From an uncultured Bacteroidales bacterium (GTDB taxonomy: Bacteria > Bacteroidota > Bacteroidia > Bacteroidales > UBA3824), in contig CAJOJG010000006.1 of assembly GCA_905234655.1 (NCBI GenBank), positions 4,709-68,708 on the forward strand: DNA of 64,000 bases. Reading direction: 5' to 3'. This document shows positions 37,370 to 64,000 of the stretch, in pieces. The position numbers were made by a program, and so were the translations under genes. The notes under the pieces were generated by a model, which searched no databases, was not told the DNA's origin, and saw only the letters and a list, made by a program, of their open reading frames with translations. Numbering within the stretch: position 1 is the first letter of the stretch; each line of letters opens with the position of its first letter.

Positions 37370-37439
37370 TAATGCATAATTCATAATTCGTAGTCAATGC
37401 ATTATTCATAATGCATTATTCATTATGAATTATGCATTA
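37370..37439. terminator. AT-rich perfect 18-bp inverted repeat between convergent guaB and regulator genes (bidirectional terminator candidate)
   Basis: TAATGCATAATTCATAAT (37370-37387) pairs with ATTATGAATTATGCATTA (37422-37439). The loop holds a tandem AATGCATTATTCAT repeat. The right arm overlaps the regulator's stop codon. Confidence 0.45.
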
Positions 37440-40177
37440 TTTTTCGTGATTTCGCTTGGTTTTTTGCCGAATTGGGCTTGGAAAAGTTTGGCGAAATAAG
37501 AGAGGTTGTTGAAGCCGACCATTGTGGCGACTTCGTTGACGCGGTAGCGGTTTTCGGCGAGAAGGGCGGCGGCTTTGTTAAGTCGCTCGGTGCGGATAAG
37601 TTCGTTGGGCGTCTTGCCGGTGGCTTGCTTGACCTTTTGGAACAGGCTCGACCGCGAACACCCCACAATTTCCGACAGCCTCGTCGCGTCAAGTTCCGTG
37701 TCTTCAATGTTGTCAAGTATCGCCTTGTGTAGGTCTTGCATGAACTTTTCGTCAATCGGCGATGAGGCTGGTTTTTCTATGACCTCAGTTTTCTCAGTTT
37801 TTTCAGTTTTCTCAGTTTTCTCTGTGATATTTTTCTCTGTGCCCTCAGTGATATTTTTCTCTGTGTTCTCTGCGTTTTTCCCCTCTGTGTCCTCTGTGTG
37901 TTTTGTTTTTTCCCGCCTTTTGATGATTACTACAATGGCGGCGGCAGCGGCGATGATTGACAATATGACGAACGGAAGTTTTGGCATAGAGCGGTCGATG
38001 ACGGTAATGGCGAGTTTGGTCTCGGGGCTTGTCGCGCCGCATGGTGAGACGGATTTTATTCTGAAAACATATTCGCCTTCGGGCAAGTAGTTGAGCGACA
38101 GGGTGTTGTCGTCGGCTTCATGCCAAGACGTGTCGATGTCGTCAACGCGGAACAATAACTTGTTTTGATAGGCGTTGAGCGTCCCCGGCACGGCAAATTC
38201 AAGGTACAGCGTGTTGCTGTCTATGTCCACGGTAATATGGCGGCAGAGGTGCGGCACGGTGTCGGTCGTGTGGACTTTGCCAGTGGCGAGTATGCTGGTA
38301 ATCAAGACTTTGGGCGCATTGTTGCGGGCGCTGACGTATTCGGGGCGGAAGGCGACCACGCCGTTTGTAGTGCCCATGTAAATCTTGCCGTCAGAGGAAT
38401 ACAGCGATGCGTCGGCGGTGAACTGCGAGCCGCACAGGCCATCGTATGTGTCGAAGAAGTTGAGGTTTTCGCCGTCATAGACCGCGAGTGCCTTCTGCGT
38501 CCCGATGTAGCATACGCCGTCCTGCGCCTCGATGCTGTATATTTCGGGCAGGTTGATGTCTATTTTTTCAAATTTTGAGGTCGGGATGTCGAACCGGTGC
38601 AGGCCGTTGCGCGTGCCGAGTAGGATTGTGGTGCTGTCGGTGATTTTTATGCAGTTGATGTCAGAGAGTTTGATGTCGCTCTTATAGACGGTGTGCGCTT
38701 TGGCGCGTGTGTCGTAGCGGCAGAGGCCTTCGTCAACGGGTATCCAAAGGTTGCCGTCGTGGTCTTCCTCGATAGTGTACGAGAGTTTTTTGAGCGGGGC
38801 TACGGCGTCGAAACGGTCGTCCTTGCGGTCGTAGACGTACAGGCTGTCCCACGACGCGGCGTAGAGGTCGTCGCCTTTGAGGTGCATCGCGTAGCAACTT
38901 TGACCGAAATAGTTGCGGTCGGCGACGGTGTAATTCTTTGTCTTTTTGGTTTTTAGGTTCAGTAGCCTGATTCCCTGCGAATACGTGCCTGCCCAAATCT
39001 CGTCGCCGTGGCATGATAGTGCGTGGATGTTGAGGTCGGGCATGAGGTTTTCGAATGTGCCTTTATGAGTGTCGTAGCGTGTCAGTCCGCCGTCGTCTGA
39101 CGCTATCCAAATGTTGTGGTCGTTGTCCTCTTGAAGTTCGCTGATTACATTGCCAGAGATTGAGTTGCGGTACTGGTTGTGGGTGTAGTTTTCGAAATAC
39201 TGCGTCCCGTTTGCGGCATAGTTGACGCCGCCGTAGAATGTCGTTACCCACAATGCGCCCCTTGCGTCTTTCAGCATCGAGTACACAAAGCACGACGAGA
39301 GCGATGTCGGGTCGGTGTTGTCGGCGAGTAGGATGTTGTGTGTGCGCTTTTCGGTGTCGTATATGCACAGTCCGTCGTCAGAGCCAATCATCAAAAGTCC
39401 GGGGCTGTATTCGTAGATGTTGTGTATGTGCGGCAGTTTTTTTTCGCTGATTGGGGCTTTCTGCGCGTTGCCGTCGGTGTCGATTGTGTAGAGTCCGTCT
39501 TCCCATGTGCCGTACCAGATGCGCCCCTGCGAGTCCTCGTACATCGAGCGGGCGTAGGAAGTGGATTTGATGTTGCGTAGTTTGACGGGCGAAAATTCGG
39601 TGTCCGACGCGCCTTTATAGTATAGTTGGGCTTCCTGGCTTTTCTTCGACGCCCATACGTTGCCCTTGCTGTCGCAGAATACGAATGTAGACGTCAGGTC
39701 GGTGCCGAGGGTGTAGCGCGTGGCTTTGCCAGTGGCAGGGTCGTAGCAAAAAATCCCCTGCCGGCTTGTCGAGAGCCATGCCTTGCCGCCGTGGACTGAG
39801 ACGTTGAGCACCATGGGCGGTTTGCCGTCCTCGATGGCGGGAAGGTCCGGCTTGGTGATTCGGTAGGTCGCCATGTCGAGTTCATAAAGTCCAAAGTCGC
39901 TGCCAAACAGCAACTTGCCGTCGCACAACGCCAACGATGAGACGTACTGGTTGAGTTGGTCGTCCCCAAAGGGGAAAACCTTGATTTTTGCGCCGTCGTA
40001 CCGGCAGAGGCCGTTGTCTGTGCCAAACCACATGAAGCCCGATTCGTCTTGCAAAATGCTTCTGACGCCATTGGCGGGCAGCCCGTCGTGCATGGTCATA
40101 TTGCGGAAACGGAAGTTTTGGGCGTGGCCCGCGGCGCAAATTAACAGTATGTATATGGTTGAGATTAGTCTTTTCAT
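37430..40177 (-). CDS. HTCS-like periplasmic sensor (beta-propellers + Y_Y_Y) fused via one TM helix directly to an AraC-type HTH; no kinase or receiver domains
   Basis: The preferred start is MKRLISTIYILLICAAGHAQ (ATG complement 40177); the ORF track extends to 40231. Motifs: NMTMHDGLPANGVRSILQDESGFMWFGTDNGLCRYDG (propeller repeats), EGEYVFRIKSV (Y_Y_Y), TM helix LPFVILSIIAAAAAIVVII, a low-complexity TEK-rich linker, then an AraC HTH (LSEIVGCSRSSLFQKVKQATGKTPNELIRTERLNKAAALL...VGFNNLSYFAKLFQAQFGKKPSE). At about 915 aa it is too short to contain HisKA/HATPase/REC domains. Confidence 0.85.
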   Translation of the reverse strand: MKRLISTIYILLICAAGHAQNFRFRNMTMHDGLPANGVRSILQDESGFMWFGTDNGLCRYDGAKIKVFPFGDDQLNQYVSSLALCDGKLLFGSDFGLYELDMATYRITKPDLPAIEDGKPPMVLNVSVHGGKAWLSTSRQGIFCYDPATGKATRYTLGTDLTSTFVFCDSKGNVWASKKSQEAQLYYKGASDTEFSPVKLRNIKSTSYARSMYEDSQGRIWYGTWEDGLYTIDTDGNAQKAPISEKKLPHIHNIYEYSPGLLMIGSDDGLCIYDTEKRTHNILLADNTDPTSLSSCFVYSMLKDARGALWVTTFYGGVNYAANGTQYFENYTHNQYRNSISGNVISELQEDNDHNIWIASDDGGLTRYDTHKGTFENLMPDLNIHALSCHGDEIWAGTYSQGIRLLNLKTKKTKNYTVADRNYFGQSCYAMHLKGDDLYAASWDSLYVYDRKDDRFDAVAPLKKLSYTIEEDHDGNLWIPVDEGLCRYDTRAKAHTVYKSDIKLSDINCIKITDSTTILLGTRNGLHRFDIPTSKFEKIDINLPEIYSIEAQDGVCYIGTQKALAVYDGENLNFFDTYDGLCGSQFTADASLYSSDGKIYMGTTNGVVAFRPEYVSARNNAPKVLITSILATGKVHTTDTVPHLCRHITVDIDSNTLYLEFAVPGTLNAYQNKLLFRVDDIDTSWHEADDNTLSLNYLPEGEYVFRIKSVSPCGATSPETKLAITVIDRSMPKLPFVILSIIAAAAAIVVIIKRREKTKHTEDTEGKNAENTEKNITEGTEKNITEKTEKTEKTEKTEVIEKPASSPIDEKFMQDLHKAILDNIEDTELDATRLSEIVGCSRSSLFQKVKQATGKTPNELIRTERLNKAAALLAENRYRVNEVATMVGFNNLSYFAKLFQAQFGKKPSEITKNNA

Positions 40178-40429
40178 TATTGGCAATCTATTTTTCCCGA
40201 CAAACATAAAAAAAATAATAGATTTGTCCAAAAATATCTATAATTTTATTTGTGGAACTCAAGAAACTTGTATCCGATGAAATGAACCATGTGTTCGGGG
40301 CTGTCGGCAATCCAAACCTCTGTTTCCCAGGCGATTTCAGTTACCCAACGTCGAAATTCCTTTTTGTTGAGGAACGAAGTGATAAAGACAGGGGGGCGGT
40401 GCAGTTTTTCAATTGATTTTTGAGTTTTT

Positions 40430-40465: not shown

Positions 40466-40691
40466 AAAAAATACTTGCAATGTATGAACAATGTTAATTT
40501 TCCGTTTCGTCATTCCCGACTATGTTAAATTAACAATATCGTCCAAACTTATAACAAAATCGTCCAAAAACGCCATTATGGACTATCATGTTAAATATTT
40601 GGACGATTTTAGCACGCGAGGGAAAAAATAGTTTGCAACTTTGTCATGTCAATCGGGAACAAATCCGGTTAACGTAAAATTAACAAACAAG

Positions 40692-43106
40692 ATGAACAAA
40701 AACTTTTTCATATCGTTAATCTTCTCGGCTGCGGCTCTCGCCTCGACCGCCCAAAACTCTGACATCCGCGAAGTGCCTTTTACAAAAGTGCATTTCACGG
40801 ACGACTTTTGGGCTTCGAGAATCGAGACCAACCGCACCGTTTCTATCCCGTCCGCTTTTAAGGAATGTGAGAAGAACGGAAGGTTCGACAATTTCGCCGT
40901 CGCAGCGGGAATCATTAAGAAAGAGCATCAGGGTGACTTCTCTTTTGACGATACCGACCCATACAAGGTAATCGAGGGCGCAAGTTACTCTCTCGCCGTC
41001 CATTACGACAAAAAACTCGACCATTACCTCGACAGCGTCATCAATCTCATCGCAAAGGCTCAAGAATCCGACGGATATATCACAACTTGTGTAACCAACA
41101 AATGCACAAGGCTTTCCGGCTGGTGGGGCACGCGCCGTTGGGAAAAAATCAACAGCCACGAACTTTACAATTCGGGTCATCTGATTGAATCCGCCGTCGC
41201 CCACTACCAAGCCACCGGCAAGCGCAATTTTCTCAACGTCGCAATCAAAAACGCCGACCTTATTTGTAAAGTGTTCGGCGCGGAAGACGGCAAAATCCAC
41301 CGCCCCTCGGGACACCCGATTGTCGAGATGGCTCTCTGCAAACTTTACAAAGTAACCGGCAAGAAGGAATACCTCGACATGGCTAAATATTTCGTCGAGG
41401 AAACCGGCCGCTGCACCGACGGACACCATCCGAGCGAGTACAGCCAAGACCACAAGCCGATTCTTCAGCAAGACGAAATCGTTGGACACGCCGTCCGCGC
41501 GGGCTACCTCTATTCGGGCGTTGCGGACGTTGCGGCCCTGACCGGCGACAAGGACTATTTCAACGCGCTCTGCCGCATCTGGGACAACATGGCGTCAAAA
41601 AAACTTTTCATCACCGGCGGCATCGGCTCGCGTCCGCAGGGCGAGGGTTTCGGCCCCAACTACGAACTCAACAACCACACCGCATATTGCGAGACCTGCG
41701 CCTCGATTGCCAATGTGTATTGGAATTACAGAATGTTTCTCGCAACGGGCGATTCCAAATACGTAGATGTCTATGAACGTGCGCTTTACAACGGCGTTAT
41801 GAGCGGCGTTTCGCTCTCTGGCGACACGTTTTTCTACGACAATCCGCTCGAAAGCGGCGGCGAACACGAAAGGGCGCCGTGGTTTGGCTGCGCTTGCTGT
41901 CCGGGCAACGTAACCCGCTTTGTGGCAAGCATTTCCAACTATGTTTACGCCACAAAAGGCAGCGACATCTACGTCAACCTCTACGCTCAAAACACCGCCG
42001 ACATCACCGCCGGCAAGAACGTCGTAAAACTCACACAATCAACCAAAATGCCGTGGGAAGGCGCGGTGGAAATCGCCGTCGAGCCCAAAAAGCAAGGCGA
42101 GTTCACAATCCTTCTTCGTCTGCCCTCGTGGTGCGGCGAAAAGCCAGTCTCGACCGACCTCTATTCCTTCACCGACAAGGTTGGACGTTACACCCTGAAA
42201 ATCAACGGCAAAGACTTCTCTGCAAACCTCGAAAAAGGCTACTTGGTAGTAAAACGCGTTTGGAAAAAAGGCGACAAAATCTCTCTCGATTTCCCGATGG
42301 ACATCCGCAAAATCAAGGCCAACGACAATGTAGAGGACGACCGTGGCAAAATCGCCCTTCAACGCGGCCCCGTTGTGTATTGCATCGAGGGCGTTGACAA
42401 TGGCAACTCGGTTTTTGACAAGTCAATCCTCAAAAACGAAAAAATCACTTACAAATACGAACCCGCGCTCTTGGGCGGCGTTGTAACGCTCACTGGCAAG
42501 GCTCTCGAACTCACTCAGGACGGCAATGTCAAAACCGTTGACTTCAAGGCGATTCCATATTCCACTTGGAACAACCGTGGCAACCACGAGATGGAAATTT
42601 GGATTGCCGAATCGCCCGCATACTCGCGCGTCAAGCCCGCCGAGACTATCGCCTCAAAAGCCACTTCGATTACGCTTCAAGCACCAATCCAAAAGGACGC
42701 GCCCGAAAGTGCCGCCGTGGAAGGCTGGGCATTTGGCGTCAACGACCAGTGGGACCCCCTGCGCTCGTCCTACACCGCCAAGCCGTACTTCTATTGGTGG
42801 CTCAAACAAGGCTCGAAAGAGACTTTGGCATACAAGTTCGACACCGCGACCGAGGTCAGCAACGTCCAACTCTACTGGCTCGAATTTGACCATTACGACG
42901 GCTCGTACCGCGTCCCCGAAAGTTGGAAACTCTTTTACAAGGACGGCGACACATTCAAGGAAGTCGAGTACCTCAGCCCCTGCACCGTCGAGAAAGACTG
43001 TTACAACAGCGTCAACTTCAAGCCCGTAAAGACCACCTCGCTCAAAATCGAAGTCCAACTGCAAAAAGGATTTTCCGGCGGCGTGTTGGAATGGAAAGTG
43101 AATTAG
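40692..43106 (+). CDS. GH127 beta-L-arabinofuranosidase-like (DUF1680) with extra C-terminal beta-sandwich domain
   Basis: The start was moved to MNKNFFISLIFSAAALASTAQ (ATG 40692). Motifs: HELYNSGHLIESAVAHY, GHPIVEMALCKLY, GHAVRAGYLYSG, AYCETCAS and GCACCPGNVTRF (the Glu/Cys Zn site and catalytic Cys context of HypBA1-type enzymes). The C-terminal ~150 aa is discoidin-like (NVQLYWLEFDH...GGVLEWKV). Confidence 0.9.
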   Translation: MNKNFFISLIFSAAALASTAQNSDIREVPFTKVHFTDDFWASRIETNRTVSIPSAFKECEKNGRFDNFAVAAGIIKKEHQGDFSFDDTDPYKVIEGASYSLAVHYDKKLDHYLDSVINLIAKAQESDGYITTCVTNKCTRLSGWWGTRRWEKINSHELYNSGHLIESAVAHYQATGKRNFLNVAIKNADLICKVFGAEDGKIHRPSGHPIVEMALCKLYKVTGKKEYLDMAKYFVEETGRCTDGHHPSEYSQDHKPILQQDEIVGHAVRAGYLYSGVADVAALTGDKDYFNALCRIWDNMASKKLFITGGIGSRPQGEGFGPNYELNNHTAYCETCASIANVYWNYRMFLATGDSKYVDVYERALYNGVMSGVSLSGDTFFYDNPLESGGEHERAPWFGCACCPGNVTRFVASISNYVYATKGSDIYVNLYAQNTADITAGKNVVKLTQSTKMPWEGAVEIAVEPKKQGEFTILLRLPSWCGEKPVSTDLYSFTDKVGRYTLKINGKDFSANLEKGYLVVKRVWKKGDKISLDFPMDIRKIKANDNVEDDRGKIALQRGPVVYCIEGVDNGNSVFDKSILKNEKITYKYEPALLGGVVTLTGKALELTQDGNVKTVDFKAIPYSTWNNRGNHEMEIWIAESPAYSRVKPAETIASKATSITLQAPIQKDAPESAAVEGWAFGVNDQWDPLRSSYTAKPYFYWWLKQGSKETLAYKFDTATEVSNVQLYWLEFDHYDGSYRVPESWKLFYKDGDTFKEVEYLSPCTVEKDCYNSVNFKPVKTTSLKIEVQLQKGFSGGVLEWKVN

Positions 43107-43236: not shown

Positions 43237-46200
43237 ATGAAGCAATTATTATTGACGGCGTTGCTGATAGCCGTCTCACTCTCGGCCTTTGCCCAGCACA
43301 AGGTAAACGGCAAAGTTACCGACCCAAATGGCGAGCCGATCATCGGCGCCAACATCATCATCAAAGGGACTACGACGGGTACTATTTCCGACTTGGACGG
43401 TAAGTACGGCCTCGACAACGTCCCCGACAATTCGACTTTGGCATTCTCGTTCATCGGCTACTTGACACAGGAATTTGTAATCAATTCCTCTAAGACTCTC
43501 AATGTTACCCTCAAAGAGGATGACAACGAACTCGAGCAGGTAGTCGTAATCGGCTACGGCACACAACGCAAGGGTGACGTTACATCCGCCGTAACGAGCG
43601 TCAAGGCCGACGAGTTTACCGAAGGCAAAATCAGCGACGCGGCTTCGCTTATCAAAGGCAAGGTGGCAGGCCTCAGCATCGTCAACTCTTCGGGCAACCC
43701 TACCGAATCGAGTTCGATAATGCTGCGCGGCATCACCACAATCACCGGCAATGTTTCGCCCCTTATCCTTATCGACGGCGTGGAAGGCACTCTCAACGAT
43801 GTCGCTCCTGAAAACATCGCCTCTATCGATGTCCTCAAAGACGCTTCCGCAGCCGCAATCTACGGTACACGTGGCGCAAATGGCGTTATCATCATCACAA
43901 CAAAGACCGGCAAGCGCGAGCAGAAACTCACCGCCGTCTATAACGGATATTTTTCTATGTCAAACTGGGCTAAGAAAGCCGACTTTATGGGTGTCAGCGA
44001 CATTATGTACGGCAAGACTTCGTTCAAAGACGAATTTGGCGACACCGACTGGCTCAAAGAAATATCCAATGACCACGGTTTTACGCAGAACCACTCGCTT
44101 ACTGTGACCGGCGGCAGCGCAAAATCCACATACTCGGGAAACATCTCGTACAACGACGAGGAAGGCATGATTAAAAACTCCGGCAACGAGAACATCAAAC
44201 TCCAGACAGACCTCACGCATTATGCTCTGAACGACATTGTCAAGTTCAACTTCAACACTCTCGTCCGCCAGCAGACATACGACATCAACAACAACCCGTA
44301 TGTATACCGCCAGGCAATCATCCGCAACCCGACCTCGCCTATTTATGACGAGGACGGCTCTTACCATGAGGACTTTAACAAACTCTACTATTACAATCCC
44401 GTCGAGATGCTTAACGAGTACGGCGGCGAGGCGCGCTACAGGACATACCGCATGACCGGCAACGTAACCGTCGAACCTATCAAAGGATGGCAGACCAACC
44501 TCATGCTCTCCCGCACCGAGGGTACGACTATCAGCCAGGAATATACCACAAAAAAGCATTACTCCTTAGTTCAGAAAGAAGACTATAACGGCTCGGCTTC
44601 CAAGAGCGAGGGTGGCGACAAACAGGACAACCTCGAAATCACTTCTAAATATGACAAGACAATCGGCAAGCACCGTTTCAATGTCCTCGTCGGTTATAGT
44701 TACCTTTACAGCATGTATGACGGTTTCTCCGCATCTAACGGCAACTTCCCTTCCGAGGCTTACCTCTACAACAACCTCCAACTCGGTACGCTCCTTACAG
44801 AGAAAGACCGCCACGCTGGAATGTCGTCCTATAAAAACGACAACACCCTCGTAGGTTTCTTCGGCCGTGTTTCATACGCTTTCGCCGACAAGTACAACCT
44901 CCTCGTCAGCGTCCGTCAGGAAGGCTCGTCGAAGTTTGGCAAGGACAACAAGTGGGGTACTTTCCCGTCGGTTTCCGCTGGCTGGACAATCTCCAAGGAA
45001 GAGTTCATGAGTGGAATCGAATGGCTTGACAACTTGAAAATCCGTGTCGGCTACGGTGTCACGGGCGTTATCCCCACAGACTCATACATCTCCCAGCGTC
45101 TTTACACGTATGATTCGTATGGCGACGTGCTCGCTCCCGACGGCACTTGGACAAAGACTTTGCAGTCTACGCAGAACCCAAATCCCGAACTTAAGTGGGA
45201 AACCACCAACGAAATTAACCTCGGCCTCGACTTCTCGGTTTTGAACGGCAGGGTTTCGGGTAGTTTCGACTACTATGTAAAGACAACCAAAGACTTGCTC
45301 TACGACTACGCAGTGCCTGTTCCGCCTAACCTGTTCCCGACTACTACCGCTAACGTCGGCGAGATGAAGAACAAGGGCTACGAACTTATGATTGAGGGCA
45401 AACCTTTCGTGGGCGACTTCACTTGGACCACGACACTCACAATGTCGGGCTATAAAAACGAACTCGTAAGCCTCTCCAACGACCTCTACGTTACCGACAA
45501 TTTCAAAGAGGAGGGCGGTCTCGGCGAGCCTATCTCAACTCCTACACACTACATGGAAGTCGGCAGCCCGCTCGGCGAATTTTGGGGACTTAAGTCTGTC
45601 GGCGTAGACAAGGACGGCTTTGTACTCGTAGAAGTCCGCGACGGCGACGGCTGGACTGTCAAGCCCTTCAACACCAACCTCAATGTCCAGGAAAACCGCC
45701 AAAAACTCGGTTCCGGTCTTCCTAAACTCTACCTCGGCTGGGGCAACACGTTCAACTACAAAGGCTTTGATCTCACGCTCCAGTTCACCGGTCAGTTTGG
45801 CTATAAGATTCTTAACGCCCAGCGTTGTTTCTACGAAAACAATTCAAGTTCGTACAACCGCTTGAAGACCGCCGCCGACACTTATGGCGCGGTATCCTAC
45901 AACAAGGAGACTAAGCAACTCGAGCCTGTCCTCGACGAGAACGGCAACCAACTCCAAGTTACGCTCTCGAAGTCGATGTCCCAAGGTTTTTGGTCCGACC
46001 ACTTGGAGAAGGGCGACTACCTCAAGCTCTCCAACATTACCTTGGGCTATAAGATTCCGATTCCCGACTCATTCCTCAAATATGTCAACGGCGCAAGGGT
46101 TTACGTTTCGGCATCAAACGTGTTCTGCATTACTGGATATTCGGGCATCGACCCCGAGGTTTCTAATTACTTCCTCGCCCCCGGCATCGACTATCAGGAC

Positions 46201-54266: not shown

Positions 54267-54342
54267 TAATTCGTCATCCGCGTATGGGAGGTAATCAATG
54301 TTTGCCTCCTATATGCAAATGACTTTTTAATAGTAACATATT

Positions 54343-55689: not shown

Positions 55690-55702
55690 ATAGGAGGTTA
55701 TT

Positions 55703-56428
55703 ATGAAACATTTATTGTTCATTTTGGCATTTATTACCATTTGCATCGTTTCCTGCGGACGGGACGATGACAAGACTGATGTCAGTCATTCGGGTGGCGT
55801 TAGAGACAGCGTTAAACATTATCCCGAGGATGGACGTATAATGTCCGATTATTACATTCAGGTTTTCATCGACCCTGACACCATAGAAGTGTGGCAGAAA
55901 GAGTATTACGGCTTGAAACCATATATTGCTGTTATGTTCGACGGTTATCAATACGACTGCAAAGGTTGGGGTGGTACGGAAGACTATGCGATTTTCAAAA
56001 AACATTCGGACATTCTCGGTGATTCTTTGTTTTCAGGGTTGTTAATTCCGTTCAGCAACAGGATAATCATTGGAGAACTTATGGAAATCAACGTCGTAAC
56101 CATCGATGATTTTGACGAGGAACATAAAAGCGGCAGTTCAGTTTCTGACATAATCACTTTTTATGGTTCGTCGCCGGTCGATTATATTAAAAATGGCTAC
56201 AAAAGCACAAAAGAATATTCAAAAGATTTGCCCGCAGGCATATCTTATGTGTACGACCTTATCAAGTACAATGCGTCGTCTATAGGCCAGGAAAAAGTAA
56301 GTTATATAGATTACTACTTTTTCCTCTGTTTCGACCGCCTTCCCTCGTCCCCCGGCACCTACACTTTTGAAATAGAAATCAAACTCTCTCAAAAAACTTT
56401 GAAAAACAAGGTAACGATGGAGTTTTAA
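55703..56428 (+). CDS. Hypothetical lipoprotein
   Basis: 241 aa. Lipobox CIVSCGRDDDK. It is preceded by AGGAGG 7 nt upstream of the ATG. I recognise no family motif. Confidence 0.6.
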   Translation: MKHLLFILAFITICIVSCGRDDDKTDVSHSGGVRDSVKHYPEDGRIMSDYYIQVFIDPDTIEVWQKEYYGLKPYIAVMFDGYQYDCKGWGGTEDYAIFKKHSDILGDSLFSGLLIPFSNRIIIGELMEINVVTIDDFDEEHKSGSSVSDIITFYGSSPVDYIKNGYKSTKEYSKDLPAGISYVYDLIKYNASSIGQEKVSYIDYYFFLCFDRLPSSPGTYTFEIEIKLSQKTLKNKVTMEF

Positions 56429-57891: not shown

Positions 57892-59181
57892 ATGAAACCG
57901 ATATTGAAACTACTCTTCCCCCTGTCGCTTTTTGCGGCGGCGGCGTGCAACAACGAGAGTGAAAACGTTGTTGCGCCCAACATCGAGGGCAAGCAAATCT
58001 TCGTCCCCAAAGACCTGGCGGACAACCTTGTAAACAATCCTTCCGACACTTCGTCGTGGAGTTACAGCCGCATGTCGCTCACTGACAATTTCGCAATCTT
58101 TTGGCAGAAAGGCTTTGGCGACAGCCTCAACAATCCGCCCGACCTCGATGGCAAGAAGATGAGCGTTGACCTCGACAACTTGCAAAAAAAGTTGGAATAT
58201 TTCTACGGCTATTACCGTGATTCACTGAAATTTATCGGTGAAAATTCCCTCGCCCAAAAATACCGCATGATGATAATGCTGTGGTATTCGCTCGAAGGCA
58301 CGGCATACGGCGGCGACTACGACCAGACGATTGGTGCGTTTTGGGTTGCGCCAAACAGGATTCAGGACACCGCGCTCAACTGTGTCGCCCACGAACTCGG
58401 ACACTCGTTCCAGATGCAGGCGCAGATTGACAAAGGCGGCCTGACCGAGGACAATTATTGGGATTGCGGGCCGTTTTACGAGATGGCCTCGCAGTTCATG
58501 CTTTGGCGGGTCAACCCCGACTGGATTCGCGACGAAAAATACCATTGGGACGCTTACCGCGAACAGTCTTTCAAGGCGTTCCTCTCTTGGGAAAACGCCT
58601 ACCACACGCCCTATGTGCTTGAATATTGGGCAGAAAAGCGCGGCGCGGACATCATCGCCAAGATGTTTCAGAACGCGAAAAAAGGCGAGGACGCGGTGGA
58701 CGTTTACAAGCGTCTGACGGGCATTTCGCAGGAGGATTTCAACATCGAAATGATGGAGGCCAACTGCAAGACTTTGAATTTGGATTTTTCACACGCATAC
58801 GCCAACACCCGCCAGTTTGTATTGCCGTTCTCGACCAAAATGCACGCTGTATCAGACGGTTACATAGAGGTTGACGACGCAAACCGTCCCGAAAATTATG
58901 GTTTCAACGCCATCGAAATCGACTTTCGCGGCAAGGAGGCCATCACCGCCGACTTTGTGCCGGAGCGCAACGACAACGTCAAGTTTTACACCCAGTTTGT
59001 CGGCATCGACAACGGCGGCAAGACGGTCTACGGCGGCATCAACGCCAACAGTTTCAAGATTCCCGACGGTCTTAAAACGTTGTACTACGTCGTGATGCCC
59101 GCCCCGCTCGTGCATTTCCACAACGTCGAAGACCCCGAAACCCAGAAAAATCCAAACTACGGATATAAGGTAAAAATGTAA
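57892..59181 (+). CDS. HExxH (gluzincin-like) lipoprotein, paralog 2 (no BACON module)
   Basis: 429 aa. Lipobox AAAACNNESEN. HELGH lies at 58390-58404 in CVAHELGHSFQMQ, with a downstream Glu in FYEMASQF. Confidence 0.75.
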   Translation: MKPILKLLFPLSLFAAAACNNESENVVAPNIEGKQIFVPKDLADNLVNNPSDTSSWSYSRMSLTDNFAIFWQKGFGDSLNNPPDLDGKKMSVDLDNLQKKLEYFYGYYRDSLKFIGENSLAQKYRMMIMLWYSLEGTAYGGDYDQTIGAFWVAPNRIQDTALNCVAHELGHSFQMQAQIDKGGLTEDNYWDCGPFYEMASQFMLWRVNPDWIRDEKYHWDAYREQSFKAFLSWENAYHTPYVLEYWAEKRGADIIAKMFQNAKKGEDAVDVYKRLTGISQEDFNIEMMEANCKTLNLDFSHAYANTRQFVLPFSTKMHAVSDGYIEVDDANRPENYGFNAIEIDFRGKEAITADFVPERNDNVKFYTQFVGIDNGGKTVYGGINANSFKIPDGLKTLYYVVMPAPLVHFHNVEDPETQKNPNYGYKVKM

Positions 59182-59315: not shown

Positions 59316-62000
59316 ATGAAAAAGTTCCTATTTCTAATTTTGTTGTTTTTCCCGCTGTGGCTCAATGCGCAGACGGAGATAACCTCGCCGAACAAGAAAA
59401 TCAGCGTCAAAGTTTCGGTGCATAACTCGGATGTCGTGTACTCTGTGAGTTACGGCAACACGCTGATAATGAGCGACTGCAAGGCGGCACTCATCGGCAA
59501 AGACTTTGCCACGAAATACGCCTTGAAAAAGTCTAAACCGGCATTGAAAACCGAGAAAACCACCTCGCCGTTCTACCGTTTCAGTAGTTTTGAGGTAAAG
59601 TACACCGAACAAAAATTCACCCTCGCCAACAATCTCGGAATCGTTTTCCGTGTCTTCGACGACGGCGTTTCTTACCGTTTCATTTACACCGGCAAAACCT
59701 CGGCGGAAGTCGAAAACGAAAAAGCCGTGTTCAATTTCACTGACGATTACAATTCGTGGATGTCGTTCACAACCAACGACAAAGACCCATTTGCAATGGC
59801 GTTTCAAAACATCTATTCTGAGAAAAAACTTTCCGCTCAAGAGTCGAAGCTCTCGTTCCTGCCCGTTGTCGCCGACTGTGGAAAAGTCAAGGCGACAGTT
59901 TTGGAAAGCGACTTGGAACATTTTCCGGGAATGTTCCTCAAAGCCGACGGCAAGAGCCTCAAAGCCGAGTTTGCACGTTATCCCAAAAAGTTTGACAAAT
60001 ATCCGTGGCGCGGAATGTCGTATGTGGCTGAAAGAGAGAATTTTATCGCCAAGATTAATGCCAACTTCAATCTTCCGTGGCGCATAATTTCGCTCACCGA
60101 AAACGATGCTCAAATGCCGGTCAGCAACCTTGTCTACGCCCTCAATTCGCCAAACCGTATCGGCAATACCGATTGGATAATCCCCGGCAAGTCGGCGTGG
60201 GACTGGTGGAACGATTGGAACATCAAAAACGTTGATTTTCAGGCTGGTATCAACACCGAAACTTACAAATATTTCATAGATTTTGCCGCCTCTCATTCGC
60301 TCGAATACATTATCCTCGACGAGGGTTGGTACGACAGCAAGAAGGCTGACATTATGAACCCGATTGCTGACATAAACCTCAAAGAATTAATCTCTTACGC
60401 AAACGATAGGGGTGTGGGCATCGTCCTTTGGGCGGTGTTTAATGTAATTGACGAAAACCTCGACCAAGTTTTTGCGCATTATTCCAAGATGGGTGTCAAG
60501 GGTTTCAAGATTGATTTTCTCGACCGCAACGACCAGACCGCCGTCGAAATGGCGTACCGCATCGCCGCGAAAGCCGCTGAATATCAGTTGGTTTTGGATT
60601 ATCACGGTTTTTATCCGCCGTCCGGAATGAACCGCGCTTACCCAAACGTTATCAATTTTGAAAGCGTTTTCGGAATGGAGGAGATGAAATGGAACGAGGA
60701 CAAAAAGGACATGCCGCTCTACGACGTTACATTCCCCTTTATCCGCATGATGTGCGGCCCCGTCGATTACACGCCCGGCGCAATGCGGAATGGTACAAAA
60801 CATTGGTATTCACCTATTTACGGCAACCCGATGAGCATGGGCACGAGGTGTCATCAGTTGGCGGCGTATGTGGTTCACGATTCGCCGTTTACGATGCTTG
60901 CCGACGCACCGAGCGCGTACCTGCAAGAGGAAAGTTTCACCGACTTTTTGTCAAAAATCCCCAACAATCCCGACTTTACCCAAATCCTTTCGGGCAAAAT
61001 TGGCGAACACGTCGTTACCGCCCGCAGGTTTGGTTCTGATTGGTTTGTAGGCGGTCTTACTAACTGGGACGACAGGGATTTGAACATCAGTTTTTCGTTT
61101 TTGGATTCCGACACTGACTACGATGTCGTACTCTACAAAGACGGCAAAAACGCGAACCACAACGGCGAGGATTATGCCGTTGAAAAATTTTCTGTCAAAA
61201 ACACAGATTCCAAGAATATTCATCTTGCCTCGGGCGGCGGTTTTGTAATGAAAATTTCTAAAAATTACAAGACTTCTTCACTTCCCACGTCGATTCCGTC
61301 AGACAAGAAGTTTGATAAGTTTTACAAAAAATATCTTAACATTTCAGGCATTCCGACGATTTCGAGCGCGAATGTCAGCGATTCGGCGTTGATAAAAACT
61401 CAGGAAATCATTTCGGTAATGCTCGCCAAGCGTCCCGACGTCAAGCGGAAAATGATTGAAAAAGGCTGTTACACAATGGTTTTGGGCAAAGATGAACAAG
61501 TCTGTGAACTGCCCGAATACGCGCATTTTTGCAACTGTGAGGACAGCATAAAATATTGGAACTGGCGGGCGCGTGGTTTTGGCGGTGCGCCTCAGCACGA
61601 AATTTCGGCAAGTTTCGGCGAGGAAAATGTTTTGGCTTTGACTTCCGACAGGTATCGTGGCGAAAACATCCCGATTCACGAGTTTTCGCATTTGATTCAT
61701 CTCGTTGGCATCGAGGGCGTTGACCCGACGTTCAGAAAGCGTCTGACCGATTGTTTCAATAATGCCAAAAGTCTTAATCTTTGGTCAGGAACATACGCAT
61801 TGTCAGACATTTACGAATATTTTGCTGAGGGCGTTCAGTCTTTTTTCAACTGCAACCAATACGTCCTGCCCGCCAACGGTGTCCACAACGCAATCAACCG
61901 CCGCGAAAAACTCAAAATCCACGACCCTCGGCTTTACAACTTGCTGAAAGAGTTTTTCTACGAAACGGACATTGATATTTACAACGAGGTGCATAGATGA
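59316..62000 (+). CDS. GH97 glycoside hydrolase fused to a C-terminal HExxH...EYFAE zincin-like domain
   Basis: 894 aa. Signal peptide LFFPLWLNAQ. GH97 motifs: GKSAWDWWNDWN, YIILDEGW, GVKGFKIDFLDRNDQ, VLDYHGFYPPSGMNRAYPNVINFESVFGMEE, MMCGPVDYTPGAM. After about aa 645 (about nt 61270) there is an extra ~240 aa domain with HEFSH (61677-61691) and YEYFAEGVQSFF about 45 aa later. Confidence 0.85.
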   Translation: MKKFLFLILLFFPLWLNAQTEITSPNKKISVKVSVHNSDVVYSVSYGNTLIMSDCKAALIGKDFATKYALKKSKPALKTEKTTSPFYRFSSFEVKYTEQKFTLANNLGIVFRVFDDGVSYRFIYTGKTSAEVENEKAVFNFTDDYNSWMSFTTNDKDPFAMAFQNIYSEKKLSAQESKLSFLPVVADCGKVKATVLESDLEHFPGMFLKADGKSLKAEFARYPKKFDKYPWRGMSYVAERENFIAKINANFNLPWRIISLTENDAQMPVSNLVYALNSPNRIGNTDWIIPGKSAWDWWNDWNIKNVDFQAGINTETYKYFIDFAASHSLEYIILDEGWYDSKKADIMNPIADINLKELISYANDRGVGIVLWAVFNVIDENLDQVFAHYSKMGVKGFKIDFLDRNDQTAVEMAYRIAAKAAEYQLVLDYHGFYPPSGMNRAYPNVINFESVFGMEEMKWNEDKKDMPLYDVTFPFIRMMCGPVDYTPGAMRNGTKHWYSPIYGNPMSMGTRCHQLAAYVVHDSPFTMLADAPSAYLQEESFTDFLSKIPNNPDFTQILSGKIGEHVVTARRFGSDWFVGGLTNWDDRDLNISFSFLDSDTDYDVVLYKDGKNANHNGEDYAVEKFSVKNTDSKNIHLASGGGFVMKISKNYKTSSLPTSIPSDKKFDKFYKKYLNISGIPTISSANVSDSALIKTQEIISVMLAKRPDVKRKMIEKGCYTMVLGKDEQVCELPEYAHFCNCEDSIKYWNWRARGFGGAPQHEISASFGEENVLALTSDRYRGENIPIHEFSHLIHLVGIEGVDPTFRKRLTDCFNNAKSLNLWSGTYALSDIYEYFAEGVQSFFNCNQYVLPANGVHNAINRREKLKIHDPRLYNLLKEFFYETDIDIYNEVHR

Positions 62001-62234: not shown

Positions 62235-64000
62235 ATGAAAAGTTTAAAATTTCTGACGTTTGCATTGGCGGTGTTGATGTTTGTCGCCTGCAACAAGGAC
62301 AAGGACGACGACAATCCGTCGCCCGAACCCGAAGTAATTTCGGGCAACATTCTTCTCAAGAACGAGGCGGACACGCTTTGGGAACTCAAGTATTCGTCTA
62401 GCTTCAAGAACATCCGTTTCTCATGTTCTGATGCGTGGCAGATTGTCATCGACGACGACGCAACGTCTTGGATCAAGGCTGACGCCACTTCCGGCGAGGC
62501 TTCGGCAGAGATGTTGAGGGTGAGGTTCGATTTCTCTGCCAACGACAAGCAAGAGAACCGCACGGGACATTTCAAGGTTCAGAGCGGCAACAATGCTGTT
62601 TCGTTCCGCGTTGTTCAGGACGCTGCGCCGCGCTCGCTCACTCTCGACGAGGTGAAGGCGATGGGCATCGACGTTGCAAAGGCCTATACGCCCAATACCG
62701 GCGCGATTGAGAAACTTCTCGACACCGGCAACGAGTTTTCGTTCTCGCGCAGCCGCGTTTCGCCGAAAGGCAACATCATCATCTTCTGGGACAAGGCTTA
62801 CGGCGACTATGAGCCTAATGCTGAGGAAGTTGACAAGGGAATCCGTGTTGATGTCAATGATTTTTTGGCAAAGGCGGACAACTATTTCGAGTACTACGTC
62901 AACGACCTTAAAATGGTAGAGTACGAAAAATCTATGCTCAAAGACTACTACATGGCGATATTCCTCTATGGCACAACGAGTTGGCGTGCCGAGGGCGGCG
63001 GTGCCAACAAGATGGGCTCGGCATGGTTCAGCGCGACGACGTGCCAGCCGACGGGCAGCACAATCGCCCACGAACTCGGACACTCGTTCCAATTCCAAGC
63101 CTCTGCCGACGGTGCTGAAATCAGCGGCGGCGCGCATTGGGAAGATTTTGCAAACTGGATGAGTTATTCCCAATACGCCGAACAAGCCTTCAATTCGGGC
63201 AATTTCACCGTCTTTTCAAATTATTATCAAAACCATTTCCATTCAACGAGCCACATGTACGCAAGTTACTGGTTTCAGTACGAATGGACCGACAAGTACG
63301 GCAAAGAGGCATTTGGCAAGGTTTGGCGTGGCACCAAGGCAAACGAGGAACTCGCGCAGGGCTACATGCGGCTGTATTGCAACAACGACATCAACATCTT
63401 CAACCTCGACCTTTACGAATACGCCGCAAAATGCGCAACGTGGGATTTCACCACCGAGGTAATCACCTACAATGAAAACGAGCCGACAGTCAAGAGCCGT
63501 GGCATGGTCAAGGATTACGGCAAGGACTACATCGGCAAACTTGGCTGGAAATCAACAACTACCGCCGACGGTTACTACGCCGTGAGCGACGAGATGGCAC
63601 CCGAGGCTACTGGCTTTAATGTCATCCGCCTCAACCTTCCCGAATCCGACAATGACATCAAGGTAAAATTTGTCGGTACGCCAAAGTCAAACGCCTCTGA
63701 TGCGGGCTGGACGAGCGGTTTTGTTGCGCTTTTGAGCGACGGCACGCGCCTGTATTCCGACCCGGTTTTGGTAGGTTCGGAACTCGAAGGCGAGATTTCG
63801 TGGACAGTGCCCGCCAACACCGAAAAACTCTGGTACATCGTATCTTGCACACCGTCCAAGTACTATTCGAGCGGTGCCGGTGTTACTTGGCCGTTCAAAA
63901 TCCAAATCGAGAATACCGACATCTACGGCACTATAAAATTCGACGGCACCGAAACCCCGCAAAGCACCGAGATTGTCAAGGCCGTAGAATGTTCAGCCAA
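62235..64000 (+). CDS. BACON-like domain + HExxH (gluzincin-like) lipoprotein, paralog 3; 3' end beyond the window
   Basis: Absent from the ORF track because there is no stop in the window. Hand translation from ATG 62235 reads MKSLKFLTFALAVLMFVACNKDKDDDNP..., open to 64000. The BACON-like module is FSCSDAWQIVIDDDATSWIKADATSGEASAEMLRVRFDFSANDKQENRTGHFKVQSGNNAVSFRVVQDA. HELGH lies at 63069-63083 in TIAHELGHSFQFQ. HWEDFANW and YWFQYEWTDKYG...YMRLYCNND match paralog 1. Confidence 0.75.
   Translation, partial: MKSLKFLTFALAVLMFVACNKDKDDDNPSPEPEVISGNILLKNEADTLWELKYSSSFKNIRFSCSDAWQIVIDDDATSWIKADATSGEASAEMLRVRFDFSANDKQENRTGHFKVQSGNNAVSFRVVQDAAPRSLTLDEVKAMGIDVAKAYTPNTGAIEKLLDTGNEFSFSRSRVSPKGNIIIFWDKAYGDYEPNAEEVDKGIRVDVNDFLAKADNYFEYYVNDLKMVEYEKSMLKDYYMAIFLYGTTSWRAEGGGANKMGSAWFSATTCQPTGSTIAHELGHSFQFQASADGAEISGGAHWEDFANWMSYSQYAEQAFNSGNFTVFSNYYQNHFHSTSHMYASYWFQYEWTDKYGKEAFGKVWRGTKANEELAQGYMRLYCNNDINIFNLDLYEYAAKCATWDFTTEVITYNENEPTVKSRGMVKDYGKDYIGKLGWKSTTTADGYYAVSDEMAPEATGFNVIRLNLPESDNDIKVKFVGTPKSNASDAGWTSGFVALLSDGTRLYSDPVLVGSELEGEISWTVPANTEKLWYIVSCTPSKYYSSGAGVTWPFKIQIENTDIYGTIKFDGTETPQSTEIVKAVECSA

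Follow-up and report, generated by a model that had tools for sequence, protein, structure and literature searches.

The window analysed here is a 64,000-nucleotide stretch of DNA from an uncultured herbivore-gut Bacteroidales bacterium, and the locus under study occupies its positions 37430-64000. The genes run in the order sensor-AraC regulator, GH127, SusC/SusD and a DUF4859 lipoprotein, followed by three DUF6055 paralogues set among an M43 metzincin, a C10 peptidase gene, a CotH-family lipoprotein and a GH97 fused to a zincin domain. All genes listed in the initial annotation were found where it had placed them, and their family assignments were upheld by Pfam and NCBIfam. Every gene from 40641 to the window end lies on the + strand, and the membrane-anchored sensor/regulator (37430..40231, - strand) is divergent from GH127, as strands and Pfam domains confirmed. 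The regulator combines a periplasmic Reg_prop beta-propeller and Y_Y_Y with a single TM helix, a linker of TEK repeats and, at its C-terminus, an AraC HTH. This layout is HTCS-like, but Pfam found no HisKA, HATPase or receiver domain, and without kinase and receiver modules the protein falls outside the definition of an HTCS; in an uncontrolled comparison its sensor was ~32% identical over ~800 aa to full HTCSs of syntenic DUF6055 loci. The beta-L-arabinofuranosidase-type GH127 gene (40641..43106, +), whose true start is probably the ATG at ~40692, encodes all three GH127 domains of Pfam (catalytic, middle and C-terminal; E 4e-114) and an extra C-terminal domain of ~160 aa. Its best PDB match was 6ex6 (673 bits, against 342 bits for HypBA1, 3wkw), and its score of 494 against the NCBIfam aceric-acid-hydrolase equivalog stayed under the cut-off of 950. 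The motifs YCETCA and FGCACCPGN are conserved in the alignment to 6ex6, and we take them to be the family's Cys/Glu metal-site motifs (the HypBA1 zinc/nucleophile site). Because it carries a type-I signal peptide, GH127 is probably periplasmic. Next to it lie the SusC-like TonB-dependent transporter (43237..46251, +; Pfam CarbopepD_reg_2, Plug and TonB barrel) and the SusD-like lipoprotein (46265..47974, +; Pfam SusD_RagB and SusD-like_3). The gene at 48062..49690 (+) had been described as a hypothetical lipoprotein; it is indeed a lipoprotein, but no longer hypothetical, since Pfam recognised three DUF4859 stretches in it. Its place after SusD, which is kept in syntenic loci, suggests that it is probably a surface substrate-binding protein.

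The three lipoproteins with HE[LV]GHSFQ motifs, two of them bearing BACON, were claimed to be paralogues, and all three proved to be members of Pfam DUF6055. DUF6055-A (49988..52333, +) is a BACON-DUF6055(HEVGHSFQ)-DUF4859 surface lipoprotein and a candidate endo-acting glycoprotein peptidase, DUF6055-B (57892..59181, +; Pfam E 4.6e-105) is a minimal form with HELGHSFQ, and DUF6055-C (62235..64000, +), which the window end cuts, is a BACON-DUF6055(HELGHSFQ) protein. In locus L001 the full-length DUF6055-C has 726 aa with a C-terminal DUF4859 and closes the locus, unrelated T9SS and RHS genes coming next; Dockerin-bearing DUF6055 forms also occur. The three Pfam matches, at 386.5, 352.4 and 307.5 bits (cut-off 27; E 1e-91 to 1e-115), are far beyond chance. 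As they are only 25-27% identical to one another, the three genes are, judged by their sequences, old paralogues. H167, E168, H171 and E197 were invariant in 48 DUF6055 homologues (25-85% identical), which corresponds to the gluzincin arrangement of HExxH with a downstream Glu as third zinc ligand, and the fold matches M60 and M1 gluzincins. The AF2 model of DUF6055-B (pLDDT 91.8) has a gluzincin domain and a C-terminal beta-sandwich resembling CBM6/CBM22 in Foldseek; the top Foldseek match of the protein was the M60 O-glycopeptidase ZmpB (E 5.5e-6, probability 1.0, with a TM of only 0.30), and Pfam M60-like PF13402 gave no match in DUF6055 proteins at E <= 0.01. HMM and Foldseek searches thus identified the HE[LV]GHSFQ proteins as DUF6055, with gluzincin fold matches and distant kinship to Svx/AvrXca. 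The Svx/AvrXca model NF040510 scored 43 bits with DUF6055-C and 28.8 bits with DUF6055-A (E 2.5e-11 and 4.9e-7) against an equivalog cut-off of 625, and DUF6055-B did not match it; the relationship is a distant one. One paper ties DUF6055 to MEROPS M106 (PMC11241649). Svx is a gluzincin, as established by azocasein assay, EDTA and E-to-A mutants (PMC9266454), and a 2026 report on Pectobacterium Svx describes degradation of a carrot extensin fraction and none of porcine gastric mucin or concanavalin A (PMC13164431).

Between DUF6055-A and DUF6055-B lie four further genes. The M43 metzincin lipoprotein (52428..54266, +; Pfam M43 26.6 vs 23 bits) had been recognised correctly, with HEIGHCLGLYH conforming to the family's HExxHxxGxxH and a Met-turn LNMMSY; it has long N- and C-terminal regions outside any family match, its gene lies in a low-GC stretch (GC 0.38-0.42), and M43 stands likewise between two DUF6055 genes in L028, L087 and L095. 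The next gene (54343..55688, +, the ORF ending at 55464) was identified by Pfam and PDB alignment to streptopain as coding for an I69 propeptide and a C10 cysteine peptidase of the streptopain type. It retains both catalytic residues, Cys (GCVAVACAQ) and His (GSHRW), and matches the Pfam profile from position 1 to 162 out of 194, but reading the DNA directly we found an in-frame TAA at 55462-55464 that removes ~74 codons still bearing C10 homology, so that the catalytic domain is not intact. The description of this gene as a relic therefore holds, and it likely represents a pseudogene or encodes a truncated product; an identical 373-aa C10 call occurs in L001 and L002. It is followed by a 241-aa lipoprotein (55703..56428, +), which had no Pfam or NCBIfam match, and by the CotH-family lipoprotein (56450..57754, +; Pfam CotH E 5.7e-36), whose assignment to the CotH fold Pfam likewise supported. 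CotH stands directly upstream of a DUF6055 gene in 15/80 loci.

The GH97 was noted for an additional HEFSH...EYFAE domain, and this feature was confirmed. The GH97 core (59316..61262, +) has N, catalytic and C domains by Pfam and matched BtGH97b (3a24) with 576 bits, against 125 bits for the inverting alpha-glucosidase SusB. The NCBIfam model for retaining alpha-galactosidases, NF053844, gave 760.9 bits, below its cut-off of 800, and 825.9 bits, above it, for the L009 orthologue; by these comparisons the core probably falls in the retaining alpha-galactosidase subgroup. GH97 enzymes of this subgroup may be beta-L-arabinopyranosidases rather than alpha-galactosidases (PMC11949833). The protein has a type-I signal peptide and is for this reason probably periplasmic. 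The 245 extra residues form an M34/PPEP-like zincin domain (61263..62000, +) with the pattern HEFSHLIH...Y...EYFAE, that is, HExxH, a Tyr, and a Glu ~40 residues downstream; among 49 homologues H139, E140, H143 and E185 were invariant and Y178 nearly so. Its AF2 model (pLDDT 93.7) was closest in Foldseek to the Pro-Pro endopeptidases PPEP-3 and PPEP-2, followed by anthrax lethal factor (TM 0.45-0.6, E 5e-6). Pfam ATLF (PF07737) remained below threshold for the window domain, which gave only a weak M90 match (E 0.07). Homologues of the domain are mostly stand-alone, and some have faint ATLF or M90 Pfam matches, among them faint ATLF matches in L090-L093.

Considered as a whole, the locus has the adjacent susC-like and susD-like genes, the co-oriented degradative enzymes and the linked sensor/regulator of a PUL. 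The claim that SusC/SusD is not followed by the usual battery of glycoside hydrolases, with GH97 and GH127 the sole clear CAZymes, was borne out for 37430-64000: GH97 is the only CAZyme downstream of the pair, and among Pfam families we detected no endo-glycanase in the locus, the position of the surface endo-glycanase being occupied by zincin lipoproteins. Neither GH121 nor GH43, the latter a putative alpha-L-arabinofuranosidase present in related loci only, was detected in the locus by Pfam. An acidic run after the lipobox Cys had been ascribed to nearly every lipoprotein, and the translations agree: it reads C-NKDDDD in the DUF4859 lipoprotein, DUF6055-A and CotH, C-HDKDD in M43, C-YDKDD in C10, C-GRDDDK in the 241-aa protein and C-NKDKDDD in DUF6055-C, with a weaker run, C-NNESEN, in DUF6055-B. 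GH127 and GH97 have plain signal peptides with no lipobox Cys. Two xylan PULs adjoin the locus in the host Bacteroidales MAG, and the setting in the host genome is one of plant cell-wall degradation.

We further analyzed the synteny of 80 DUF6055 loci from genomes of different species, and counted gene families in 46 loci spanning 20 kb or more, again from different species. SusC was present in 37/46 of these, HTCS in 31/46, GH127, GH146-like or GH43 in 30/46, GH97 or GH27 in 17/46, and another peptidase (M24 Xaa-Pro aminopeptidase, DPP-IV, PPEP-like, M64 or M43) in 18/46. Across the 80 loci the families recurrent with DUF6055 were SusC/D, HTCS, GH127/GH146-like/GH43, GH97/GH27, Xaa-Pro aminopeptidase, DPP-IV, M64 and OPT, and they included no endo-glycanase and no GH121. 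The locus thus belongs to a PUL family that is conserved and widespread. The earlier statement that no characterised PUL has this gene combination stands insofar as we found no characterised Bacteroidota PUL for extensins in the literature, but the combination is not unique, since the gene set recurs in 80 species, where it is joined by GH43, GH146-like, GH27, proline peptidases and OPT. One operon reads MFS-DUF6055-M24-EamA-GH97/PPEP-like-GH43-GH127-DPP-IV, and Segatella copri loci combined contain GH146-like, SusC, SusD, DUF6055, GH27, a second DUF6055, M64, DPP-IV and HTCS, together with OPT encoded on the other strand. In 21/80 loci GH127 or GH146-like is the gene immediately before SusC, in the same orientation, an arrangement that fits a single functional unit. 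Fusions of DUF6055 with GH97 occur in both orders, and DUF6055-GH43 fusions occur too.

These observations bear on what the substrate may be. The several proline-directed peptidase families and the OPT, EamA and MFS transporters of related loci, together with M64, which takes its name from an IgA peptidase, would suit a general scavenger of proline-rich proteins or peptides (prolamins, collagen, salivary proline-rich proteins, the IgA hinge), with the arabinosidase and galactosidase genes being neighbours that have a separate job. We think this improbable: in this locus GH97 is fused to a PPEP-like zincin, in other loci DUF6055 is fused to GH97 or to GH43, GH127 or GH146-like directly precedes SusC in 21/80 loci, and the surroundings in the host genome are those of plant cell-wall degradation, L-arabinofuranose being a plant sugar. 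Utilisation of mucin or other host O-glycoproteins, by analogy with BACON-M60-like glycopeptidases, is far less probable still. BACON on two DUF6055 proteins and the mucin-active ZmpB as best structural match of DUF6055 speak in its favour, but no sialidase, fucosidase, GH20, GH101, GH109, sulfatase or other mucin-type enzyme was present in the window locus or among the recurrent families of the 80 related loci, the recurrent enzymes are aimed at L-arabinose, PF13402 does not match the DUF6055 proteins, and porcine gastric mucin is not degraded by Svx. The initial annotation had left the substrate between a plant HRGP/extensin and a mucin-type glycoprotein; the Svx link, the fold matches, the synteny and the missing mucin-type enzymes favour the former and speak against the latter.

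We propose, with a probability of roughly 0.6, that the locus is a SusC/SusD-type system for Pro/Hyp-rich, arabinosylated and alpha-galactosylated plant cell-wall glycoproteins, i.e. extensin-type HRGPs. At the cell surface the DUF4859 lipoprotein and the BACON/DUF4859 modules would hold the glycoprotein, while DUF6055-A and DUF6055-C, possibly DUF6055-B, with help from M43, would cut its glycosylated backbone into glycopeptides, so that the DUF6055 gluzincins would fill the role held by the endo-glycanase in ordinary PULs. The glycopeptides would be imported by SusC/SusD, and in the periplasm GH127 would take beta-L-arabinofuranose off Hyp-arabinosides, GH97 would take off alpha-galactose (or beta-L-arabinopyranose), and its PPEP-like zincin domain would cut the exposed Pro/Hyp-rich peptide. 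The divergent sensor-AraC protein would detect a breakdown product and switch the locus on. The coupling, at the cell surface, of deglycosylation with backbone proteolysis of a glycoprotein, which was suggested at the outset, is supported at the level of sequence and structural model by the Svx kinship, fold matches, synteny and fusions.

Several observations count against the HRGP model. The kinship with Svx is distant (43 bits vs 625) and does not extend to DUF6055-B; Svx needs an acyltransferase-like beta-helix domain for extensin recognition, which is missing from the window proteins, and its proposed sugar-binding residues W136 and G137 are not conserved before HExxH in DUF6055. The structural matches do not go beyond the fold: TM is 0.30 for DUF6055, and the PPEP-like domain reaches 0.5-0.6. 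The locus contains neither GH121 nor an alpha-L-arabinofuranosidase that could remove the alpha-1,3 cap from Ara4-Hyp, GH97 may act as a beta-L-arabinopyranosidase, and GH127 is nearest in structure to 6ex6, not HypBA1. Finally, B. intestinalis PUL8 was induced in vivo by a synthetic arabinose glycan free of protein, which counts here if PUL8 is of this family.

A target of that kind, namely a protein-free glycan with beta-L-arabinose such as a beta-L-Araf-capped arabinan, arabinogalactan side chains or another plant or microbial polysaccharide, would make the zincins binding, accessory or non-peptidase proteins. Among the alternatives to an extensin-type glycoprotein we rate this one highest, though as unlikely. 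It agrees with the recurrent CAZymes (GH127, GH146-like, GH43 and GH97), with the nearest structure of the window GH127 and with the CBM-like, BACON and DUF4859 modules on the DUF6055 proteins. B. intestinalis PUL8 has a very similar GH set, its recombinant GH127 and GH97 free L-arabinose from the synthetic arabinose glycan, and its authors speculate on rare or microbial glycans (PMC11949833). On the other hand, the HExxH and Glu triad is invariant in 48 divergent DUF6055 sequences, which would be unexpected in binding-only proteins, there is no endo-glycanase for opening a polysaccharide, M24 Xaa-Pro, DPP-IV, PPEP-like and M64 peptidases and the oligopeptide transporter recur in the same operons, and the sole characterised relative, Svx, is a peptidase. 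We retain the HRGP reading. Whether it extends to the whole family is, in our estimate, an even bet: DUF6055 would then be a large, unrecognised family of extensin/HRGP-specific glycopeptidases which, together with GH127/GH146/GH43, GH97/GH27 and proline peptidases, defines an 'HRGP utilisation locus' widespread in gut Bacteroidales. If this is true, hosts of such loci would include Segatella copri, B. intestinalis, Phocaeicola and rumen Prevotellaceae, plant cell-wall structural glycoproteins would be a nutrient niche of their own, and orphan loci such as B. intestinalis PUL8 would be explained.

Among known systems, Svx/AvrXca of Pectobacterium and Xanthomonas shares with the DUF6055 proteins homology in the peptidase domain (in DUF6055-C and DUF6055-A) and the HExxH...E arrangement, and both Svx, according to its authors, and DUF6055, in this analysis, have ZmpB as their nearest solved fold. 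Svx has a left-handed beta-helix, whereas no such acyltransferase-like domain was found in DUF6055 proteins by Pfam or in the AF2 model, and these carry a CBM-like beta-sandwich, BACON and DUF4859 instead; moreover Svx/AvrXca are secreted virulence factors, while the DUF6055 proteins are lipoproteins that a gut commensal encodes within a SusC/D locus. The extra domain of GH97 has its fold and its HExxH...Y...E pattern in common with PPEP-1, -2 and -3 and anthrax lethal factor (MEROPS M34), but is only ~15% identical to them and is fused to a glycoside hydrolase. With the BACON-M60-like mucin PULs of Bacteroides and with C. perfringens ZmpB the locus appears, by analogy, to share the logic of a surface zincin glycopeptidase with carbohydrate-binding modules that attacks a densely O-glycosylated backbone beside exo-glycosidases; its zincins are nevertheless of another family (no PF13402 match, and a TM of only 0.30 to ZmpB), and its glycosidases are the plant-type GH127 and GH97, with GH43, GH146-like and GH27 in its relatives.

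B. intestinalis PUL8 (BACINT_00515-00526), which has syntenic counterparts in B. cellulosilyticus and P. vulgatus, encodes five GHs belonging to GH127, GH146, GH97 and a fourth family, and its natural substrate is stated as unknown (PMC11949833); when that paper was searched for 'peptidase' and 'protease', neither term turned up. In B. intestinalis the DUF6055 locus L094 has GH127, GH43, GH97 with a PPEP-like domain and a second GH127 beside SusC/D, along with two DUF6055 genes, CotH, EamA and HTCS. The GH97 and GH127 genes are neighbours in L094, but in PUL8 their published tags differ by six; PUL8 may be another locus, distinct from L094. The HRGP clusters of Bifidobacterium longum and Xanthomonas (HypBA1 GH127, HypBA2 GH121, HypAA GH43) share GH127 with the locus and GH43 with its relatives, and in Xanthomonas a prolyl oligopeptidase lies beside the glycosidases of the cluster (PMC6085000). 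According to the literature, homologues of hypBA2 and hypAA are missing from Bacteroides, and the locus has neither the GH121 nor the HypAA GH43 that the bifidobacterial cluster carries next to GH127; what it has instead is SusC/D import and multiple candidate backbone-attacking zincins.

Our best reading of the locus at 37430-64000 is that of a plant HRGP (Hyp-rich cell-wall glycoprotein)/extensin utilisation system with candidate glycopeptidases of a new family at its core. Using an ORF map and Pfam/NCBIfam scans we recovered every gene named in the initial annotation. The regulator (37430-40231, minus strand, 933 aa) combines a Reg_prop/Y_Y_Y sensor, one TM helix, a low-complexity Thr-Glu-Lys repeat linker (TEKTEKTEK) and an AraC HTH; the same scans found no histidine-kinase or receiver domain in it, and from its domains it looks like a hybrid two-component sensor (HTCS) stripped of its kinase and receiver modules. 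Full HTCSs of ~1330 aa are present in syntenic loci of other species, and the window regulator is ~32% identical to them, a comparison made without an unrelated HTCS as control and given no weight here. Divergent from the regulator is GH127, with all three family domains present, followed 130 bp downstream by SusC, then SusD and, directly after it, a lipoprotein of three DUF4859 repeats. Pfam places each of the three HE[LV]GHSFQ proteins (paralogue A, 49988-52333; B, 57892-59181; C, 62235 to the window end) in DUF6055 (E 1e-91 to 1e-115). In two of them BACON lies N-terminal and DUF4859 C-terminal of DUF6055, and the complete 726-aa form of the third gene is visible in a metagenome contig, L001. 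With a pairwise identity of only 25-27%, the three genes are old paralogues rather than recent copies. The locus further encodes an M43 peptidase (HEIGHCLGLYH, score just over the Pfam cut-off), a protein with I69 and C10 domains assigned by Pfam, a 241-aa orphan lipoprotein, a CotH-family lipoprotein (56450-57754, Pfam) and a GH97 with 245 extra C-terminal residues bearing HEFSH...EYFAE. In the translations, the acidic run after the lipobox Cys, also noticed initially, was found in eight lipoproteins. For GH127 and GH97, whose signal peptides are of the ordinary kind, a periplasmic location is probable.

On the downstream side the third DUF6055 gene is the last of the locus, and beyond it L001 carries unrelated T9SS and RHS genes; immediately past the locus (L001 16625-20861) these are a small protein with a T9SS tail and an RHS/YD-repeat toxin-like protein of 1273 aa, unrelated to the PUL. 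Upstream, IMP dehydrogenase lies between the locus and two xylan-type PULs (5793-35729), one with tandem SusC/SusD pairs, which encode GH10-CBM4_9 enzymes, GH5, a SASA-type esterase, a DUF5627/BT_3987-like protein, an SGBP-B-like protein and a 586-aa DUF6057 membrane protein. The source contig is part of an uncultured Bacteroidales MAG. Terminator counts in our scan were no higher than in shuffles, and the accompanying promoter scan used the sigma-70 consensus, which is not relevant to Bacteroidota. In the C10 gene the catalytic Cys and His are preserved, but an in-frame TAA (55462-55464) ends it, and ~74 codons past it (to 55688) in the same frame still resemble the C-terminal part of the C10 domain, so that the term relic, given to it from the sequence alone, is accurate. 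The same truncated C10 call occurs in two independent metagenome contigs, L001 and L002. GC content falls to 0.38-0.42 at 52000-56000, against ~0.50 around it, and this drop, which spans the M43, C10 and 241-aa genes, suggests that they form a separately acquired cassette.

We collected 80 related loci from the neighbourhoods of DUF6055 homologues and by scanning a single genome of each species, annotating them by phmmer against the window and locus proteins, with Pfam on recurrent unassigned clusters. The window species itself is not among these genome loci, where the best match is 47-49% identical. A recurring order was observed, namely GH127 or GH146-like, SusC, SusD, in some a DUF4859 lipoprotein, BACON-DUF6055-DUF4859, in some CotH, and DUF6055, closed either by an HTCS or by an M24 Xaa-Pro aminopeptidase, EamA, GH97 with a PPEP-like (Pro-Pro endopeptidase, M34) domain, GH43, GH127 and DPP-IV. 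Of these loci, 46 measure 20 kb or more; in this subset SusC was found in 37, an HTCS in 31, GH127, GH146-like or GH43 in 30, GH97 or GH27 in 17 and another peptidase in 18, and 38 of the 46 had at least one of the three enzyme groups (GH127/GH146-like/GH43, GH97/GH27 or another peptidase). Across all 80 loci, GH127 or GH146-like stands immediately 5' of SusC on the same strand in 21, and CotH directly upstream of DUF6055 in 15. The slot between two DUF6055 genes differs by species, holding a small hypothetical gene and CotH, M43 alone, or nothing; M43 occupies it in L028 and L087, as well as in the metagenome contig L095. The short DUF6055 gene has a conserved partner on its upstream side in CotH, a lipoprotein whose acidic run is of the surface-export type; Pfam names CotH as a kinase family, and a kinase-fold protein at the cell surface would have no obvious role in the locus. 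Fusions of DUF6055 with GH97 occur in L022 and L036, with both domain orders among the homologues P0351, P0353 and P0366, and fusions with GH43 in L024, L075, L079 and L081. The Segatella copri loci combined hold GH146-like, SusC, SusD, DUF6055, GH27, a second DUF6055, M64, DPP-IV and HTCS; an oligopeptide transporter (OPT) is encoded there on the other strand. Eight Prevotella-type loci (L037, L041, L043, L050, L057, L062, L074, L082) have a pair of FAS1 (fasciclin) proteins, ~580-680 aa, directly 5' of SusC. The carriers include Bacteroides, Phocaeicola, Prevotella/Segatella/Xylanibacter, Parabacteroides, Alistipes, Muribaculaceae, Tannerellaceae and Marinilabiliaceae. Judged by gene content and order, the window locus is a member of a widespread, conserved PUL family without assigned function.

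The DUF6055 proteins themselves are candidate peptidases. Four residues, H167, E168, H171 and E197, do not vary across 48 aligned homologues whose identity to paralogue B ranges from 25 to 85%, and this HExxH with its Glu constitutes the gluzincin signature. The NCBIfam model of Svx/AvrXca, a secreted gluzincin family of Pectobacterium and Xanthomonas, matched paralogue C (E 2.5e-11) and paralogue A (E 4.9e-7); since the scores are far under the equivalog cut-off, the relation is distant. Svx of Pectobacterium atrosepticum cleaves azocasein, EDTA blocks this and Glu-to-Ala changes make it about threefold weaker (PMC9266454). It was reported in 2026 to degrade a carrot extensin fraction while sparing mucin and concanavalin A, an extensin activity that required its acyltransferase-like domain (PMC13164431). 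The beta-helix domain of Svx is missing from the three paralogues here. One paper has tied DUF6055 to MEROPS M106 (PMC11241649). PDB sequence searches gave no match for paralogue B, the GH97 C-terminal domain or CotH, and only the fold search was informative. The AlphaFold2 model of paralogue B (pLDDT 91.8) best matched the M60 O-glycopeptidase ZmpB, M1 aminopeptidases being next, and its C-terminal beta-sandwich resembles CBM6/CBM22; with TM-scores of ~0.3, this modelled likeness is at fold level only. A profile search of 1.84 billion representatives returned 707 DUF6055 clusters at E <= 1e-10, counted at 50% identity. Some of these proteins carry a type-I (cellulosomal) dockerin and others a T9SS C-terminal sorting domain (P0478, P0410, P0422, P0441, P0402), so that several secretion and display systems of plant-fibre degraders deploy the family. 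One homologue, P0133 (WP_419078499.1, 432 aa, cluster of P0061), has the NCBI name 'glycoside hydrolase family 5 protein, partial [Ruminococcus sp.]', which looks like an annotation error or binning artefact.

A further zincin is appended to GH97. In 49 sequences of this domain H139, E140, H143 and E185 are invariant and Y178 nearly so, and its model (pLDDT 93.7) gave PPEP-3 and PPEP-2 as top matches (E 5e-6, TM 0.5-0.6), followed by anthrax lethal factor. Most homologues of the domain stand alone, with lengths of 260-310 aa, and some have precomputed ATLF or M90 Pfam hits. The GH97 core scored 576 bits to the retaining alpha-galactosidase BtGH97b against 125 bits to SusB; it falls slightly below the NCBIfam alpha-galactosidase cut-off, while the orthologue in L009 is above it. 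Possibly, the window enzyme is a beta-L-arabinopyranosidase instead. An operon without SusC/D, which we suspect to be from Phocaeicola (L090-L093 and L009), has GH97 and the PPEP-like protein as separate genes (673 and 221 aa) in some strains and fused (905 aa) in others. In L090 and L091 the DUF6055 gene has shrunk to an 80-aa call, suggesting strain-level decay.

Beta-L-arabinofuranosidase families, alpha-galactosidase-type enzyme/zincin fusions, proline-directed peptidases and kinship to an extensin-cleaving protease together point to a Pro/Hyp-rich, arabinosylated and alpha-galactosylated substrate. Hyp-Ara(1-4) with Ser-alpha-Gal is the extensin-type HRGP pattern (PMC9266454). The initial proposal of glycoprotein deglycosylation coupled to proteolysis was thus largely supported, with synteny, fusions and the Svx relation favouring plant HRGP/extensin; its mucin-type alternative was rejected, since neither mucin-type glycosidases nor sulfatases were seen and Svx does not act on mucin. 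The gene families that recur in the related loci include neither endo-glycanases nor mucin-type enzymes. We considered an arabinogalactan-protein PUL because the best solved relative of the window GH127 is 6ex6, which we take to be a B. thetaiotaomicron AGP-PUL enzyme; as main target this is unlikely, given that there is no beta-galactanase/beta-galactosidase set, that GH2 occurs in only 3/80 loci and that GH43 of the related loci is not close to galactanase structures. Rhamnogalacturonan-II was rejected, GH127 being far under the aceric-acid-hydrolase cut-off and the RG-II enzyme families all absent. For HRGP utilisation we infer all functional steps of the following mechanism, to which we assign a probability of roughly 0.6. 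DUF6055 zincins at the surface, together with M43, would cleave the glycosylated backbone; the glycopeptides would be taken in through SusC/D; GH127 and GH97 would remove the sugars in the periplasm, whereupon the PPEP-like domain would cleave the bared Pro/Hyp-rich peptide; and the sensor-AraC protein would govern expression. In relatives, GH43, extra GH127/GH146-like enzymes, Xaa-Pro aminopeptidase, DPP-IV and inner-membrane transporters would complete the pathway. The weak points of the HRGP model are the distance to Svx, the missing Svx recognition domain, the low TM-scores, the absence of GH43 from the window locus and the possible beta-L-arabinopyranosidase.

PULs are the chief means by which gut Bacteroidota partition dietary fibre and, to our knowledge, the arabinosides that plant cell walls carry bound to protein have no PUL assigned to them. 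If our reading is true, extensins and other HRGPs would be a new substrate class on the gut glycan map, DUF6055, with the ~700 clusters counted above, and the GH97-zincin fusion would gain a function, and a strongly induced orphan PUL of B. intestinalis a possible explanation. The extensin network is notoriously protease-resistant, and the loci would then be a source of glycoproteases that could open it for plant glycoproteomics or biomass processing. As the carriers include species that are very abundant in the human gut, the idea is directly accessible to diet-microbiome studies.

In the literature that we searched, no PUL of Bacteroidota is characterised as acting on extensins or HRGPs. The Xanthomonas HRGP cluster includes a prolyl oligopeptidase, and Bacteroides are said in the same paper to be without homologues of the bifidobacterial HRGP genes hypBA2 and hypAA (PMC6085000). 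In B. intestinalis, the five GHs encoded by PUL8 fall into GH127, GH146, GH97 and a further family. The GH127 and GH97 of PUL8 liberate L-arabinose, and the PUL is strongly induced by a synthetic arabinose glycan in vivo but not in vitro, its natural substrate being unknown according to the authors (PMC11949833); a term search of that paper found neither 'peptidase' nor 'protease'. In the B. intestinalis DUF6055 locus (L094), GH127, GH43 and GH97 with a PPEP-like domain form a block on the minus strand, followed by a plus-strand operon of GH127, SusC, SusD, DUF4859, DUF6055, a small hypothetical gene, CotH, DUF6055, EamA and HTCS. Its GH set is nearly equal to that of PUL8; however, the published PUL8 locus tags, found in no other paper by literature search, mismatch the L094 gene spacing and could not be mapped onto it, so that the two are only possibly one locus. 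PUL8 is the nearest published object to the window locus family, and the locus is best placed in the class of glycoprotein-targeting PULs, differing in its zincin family and in its probable plant substrate.
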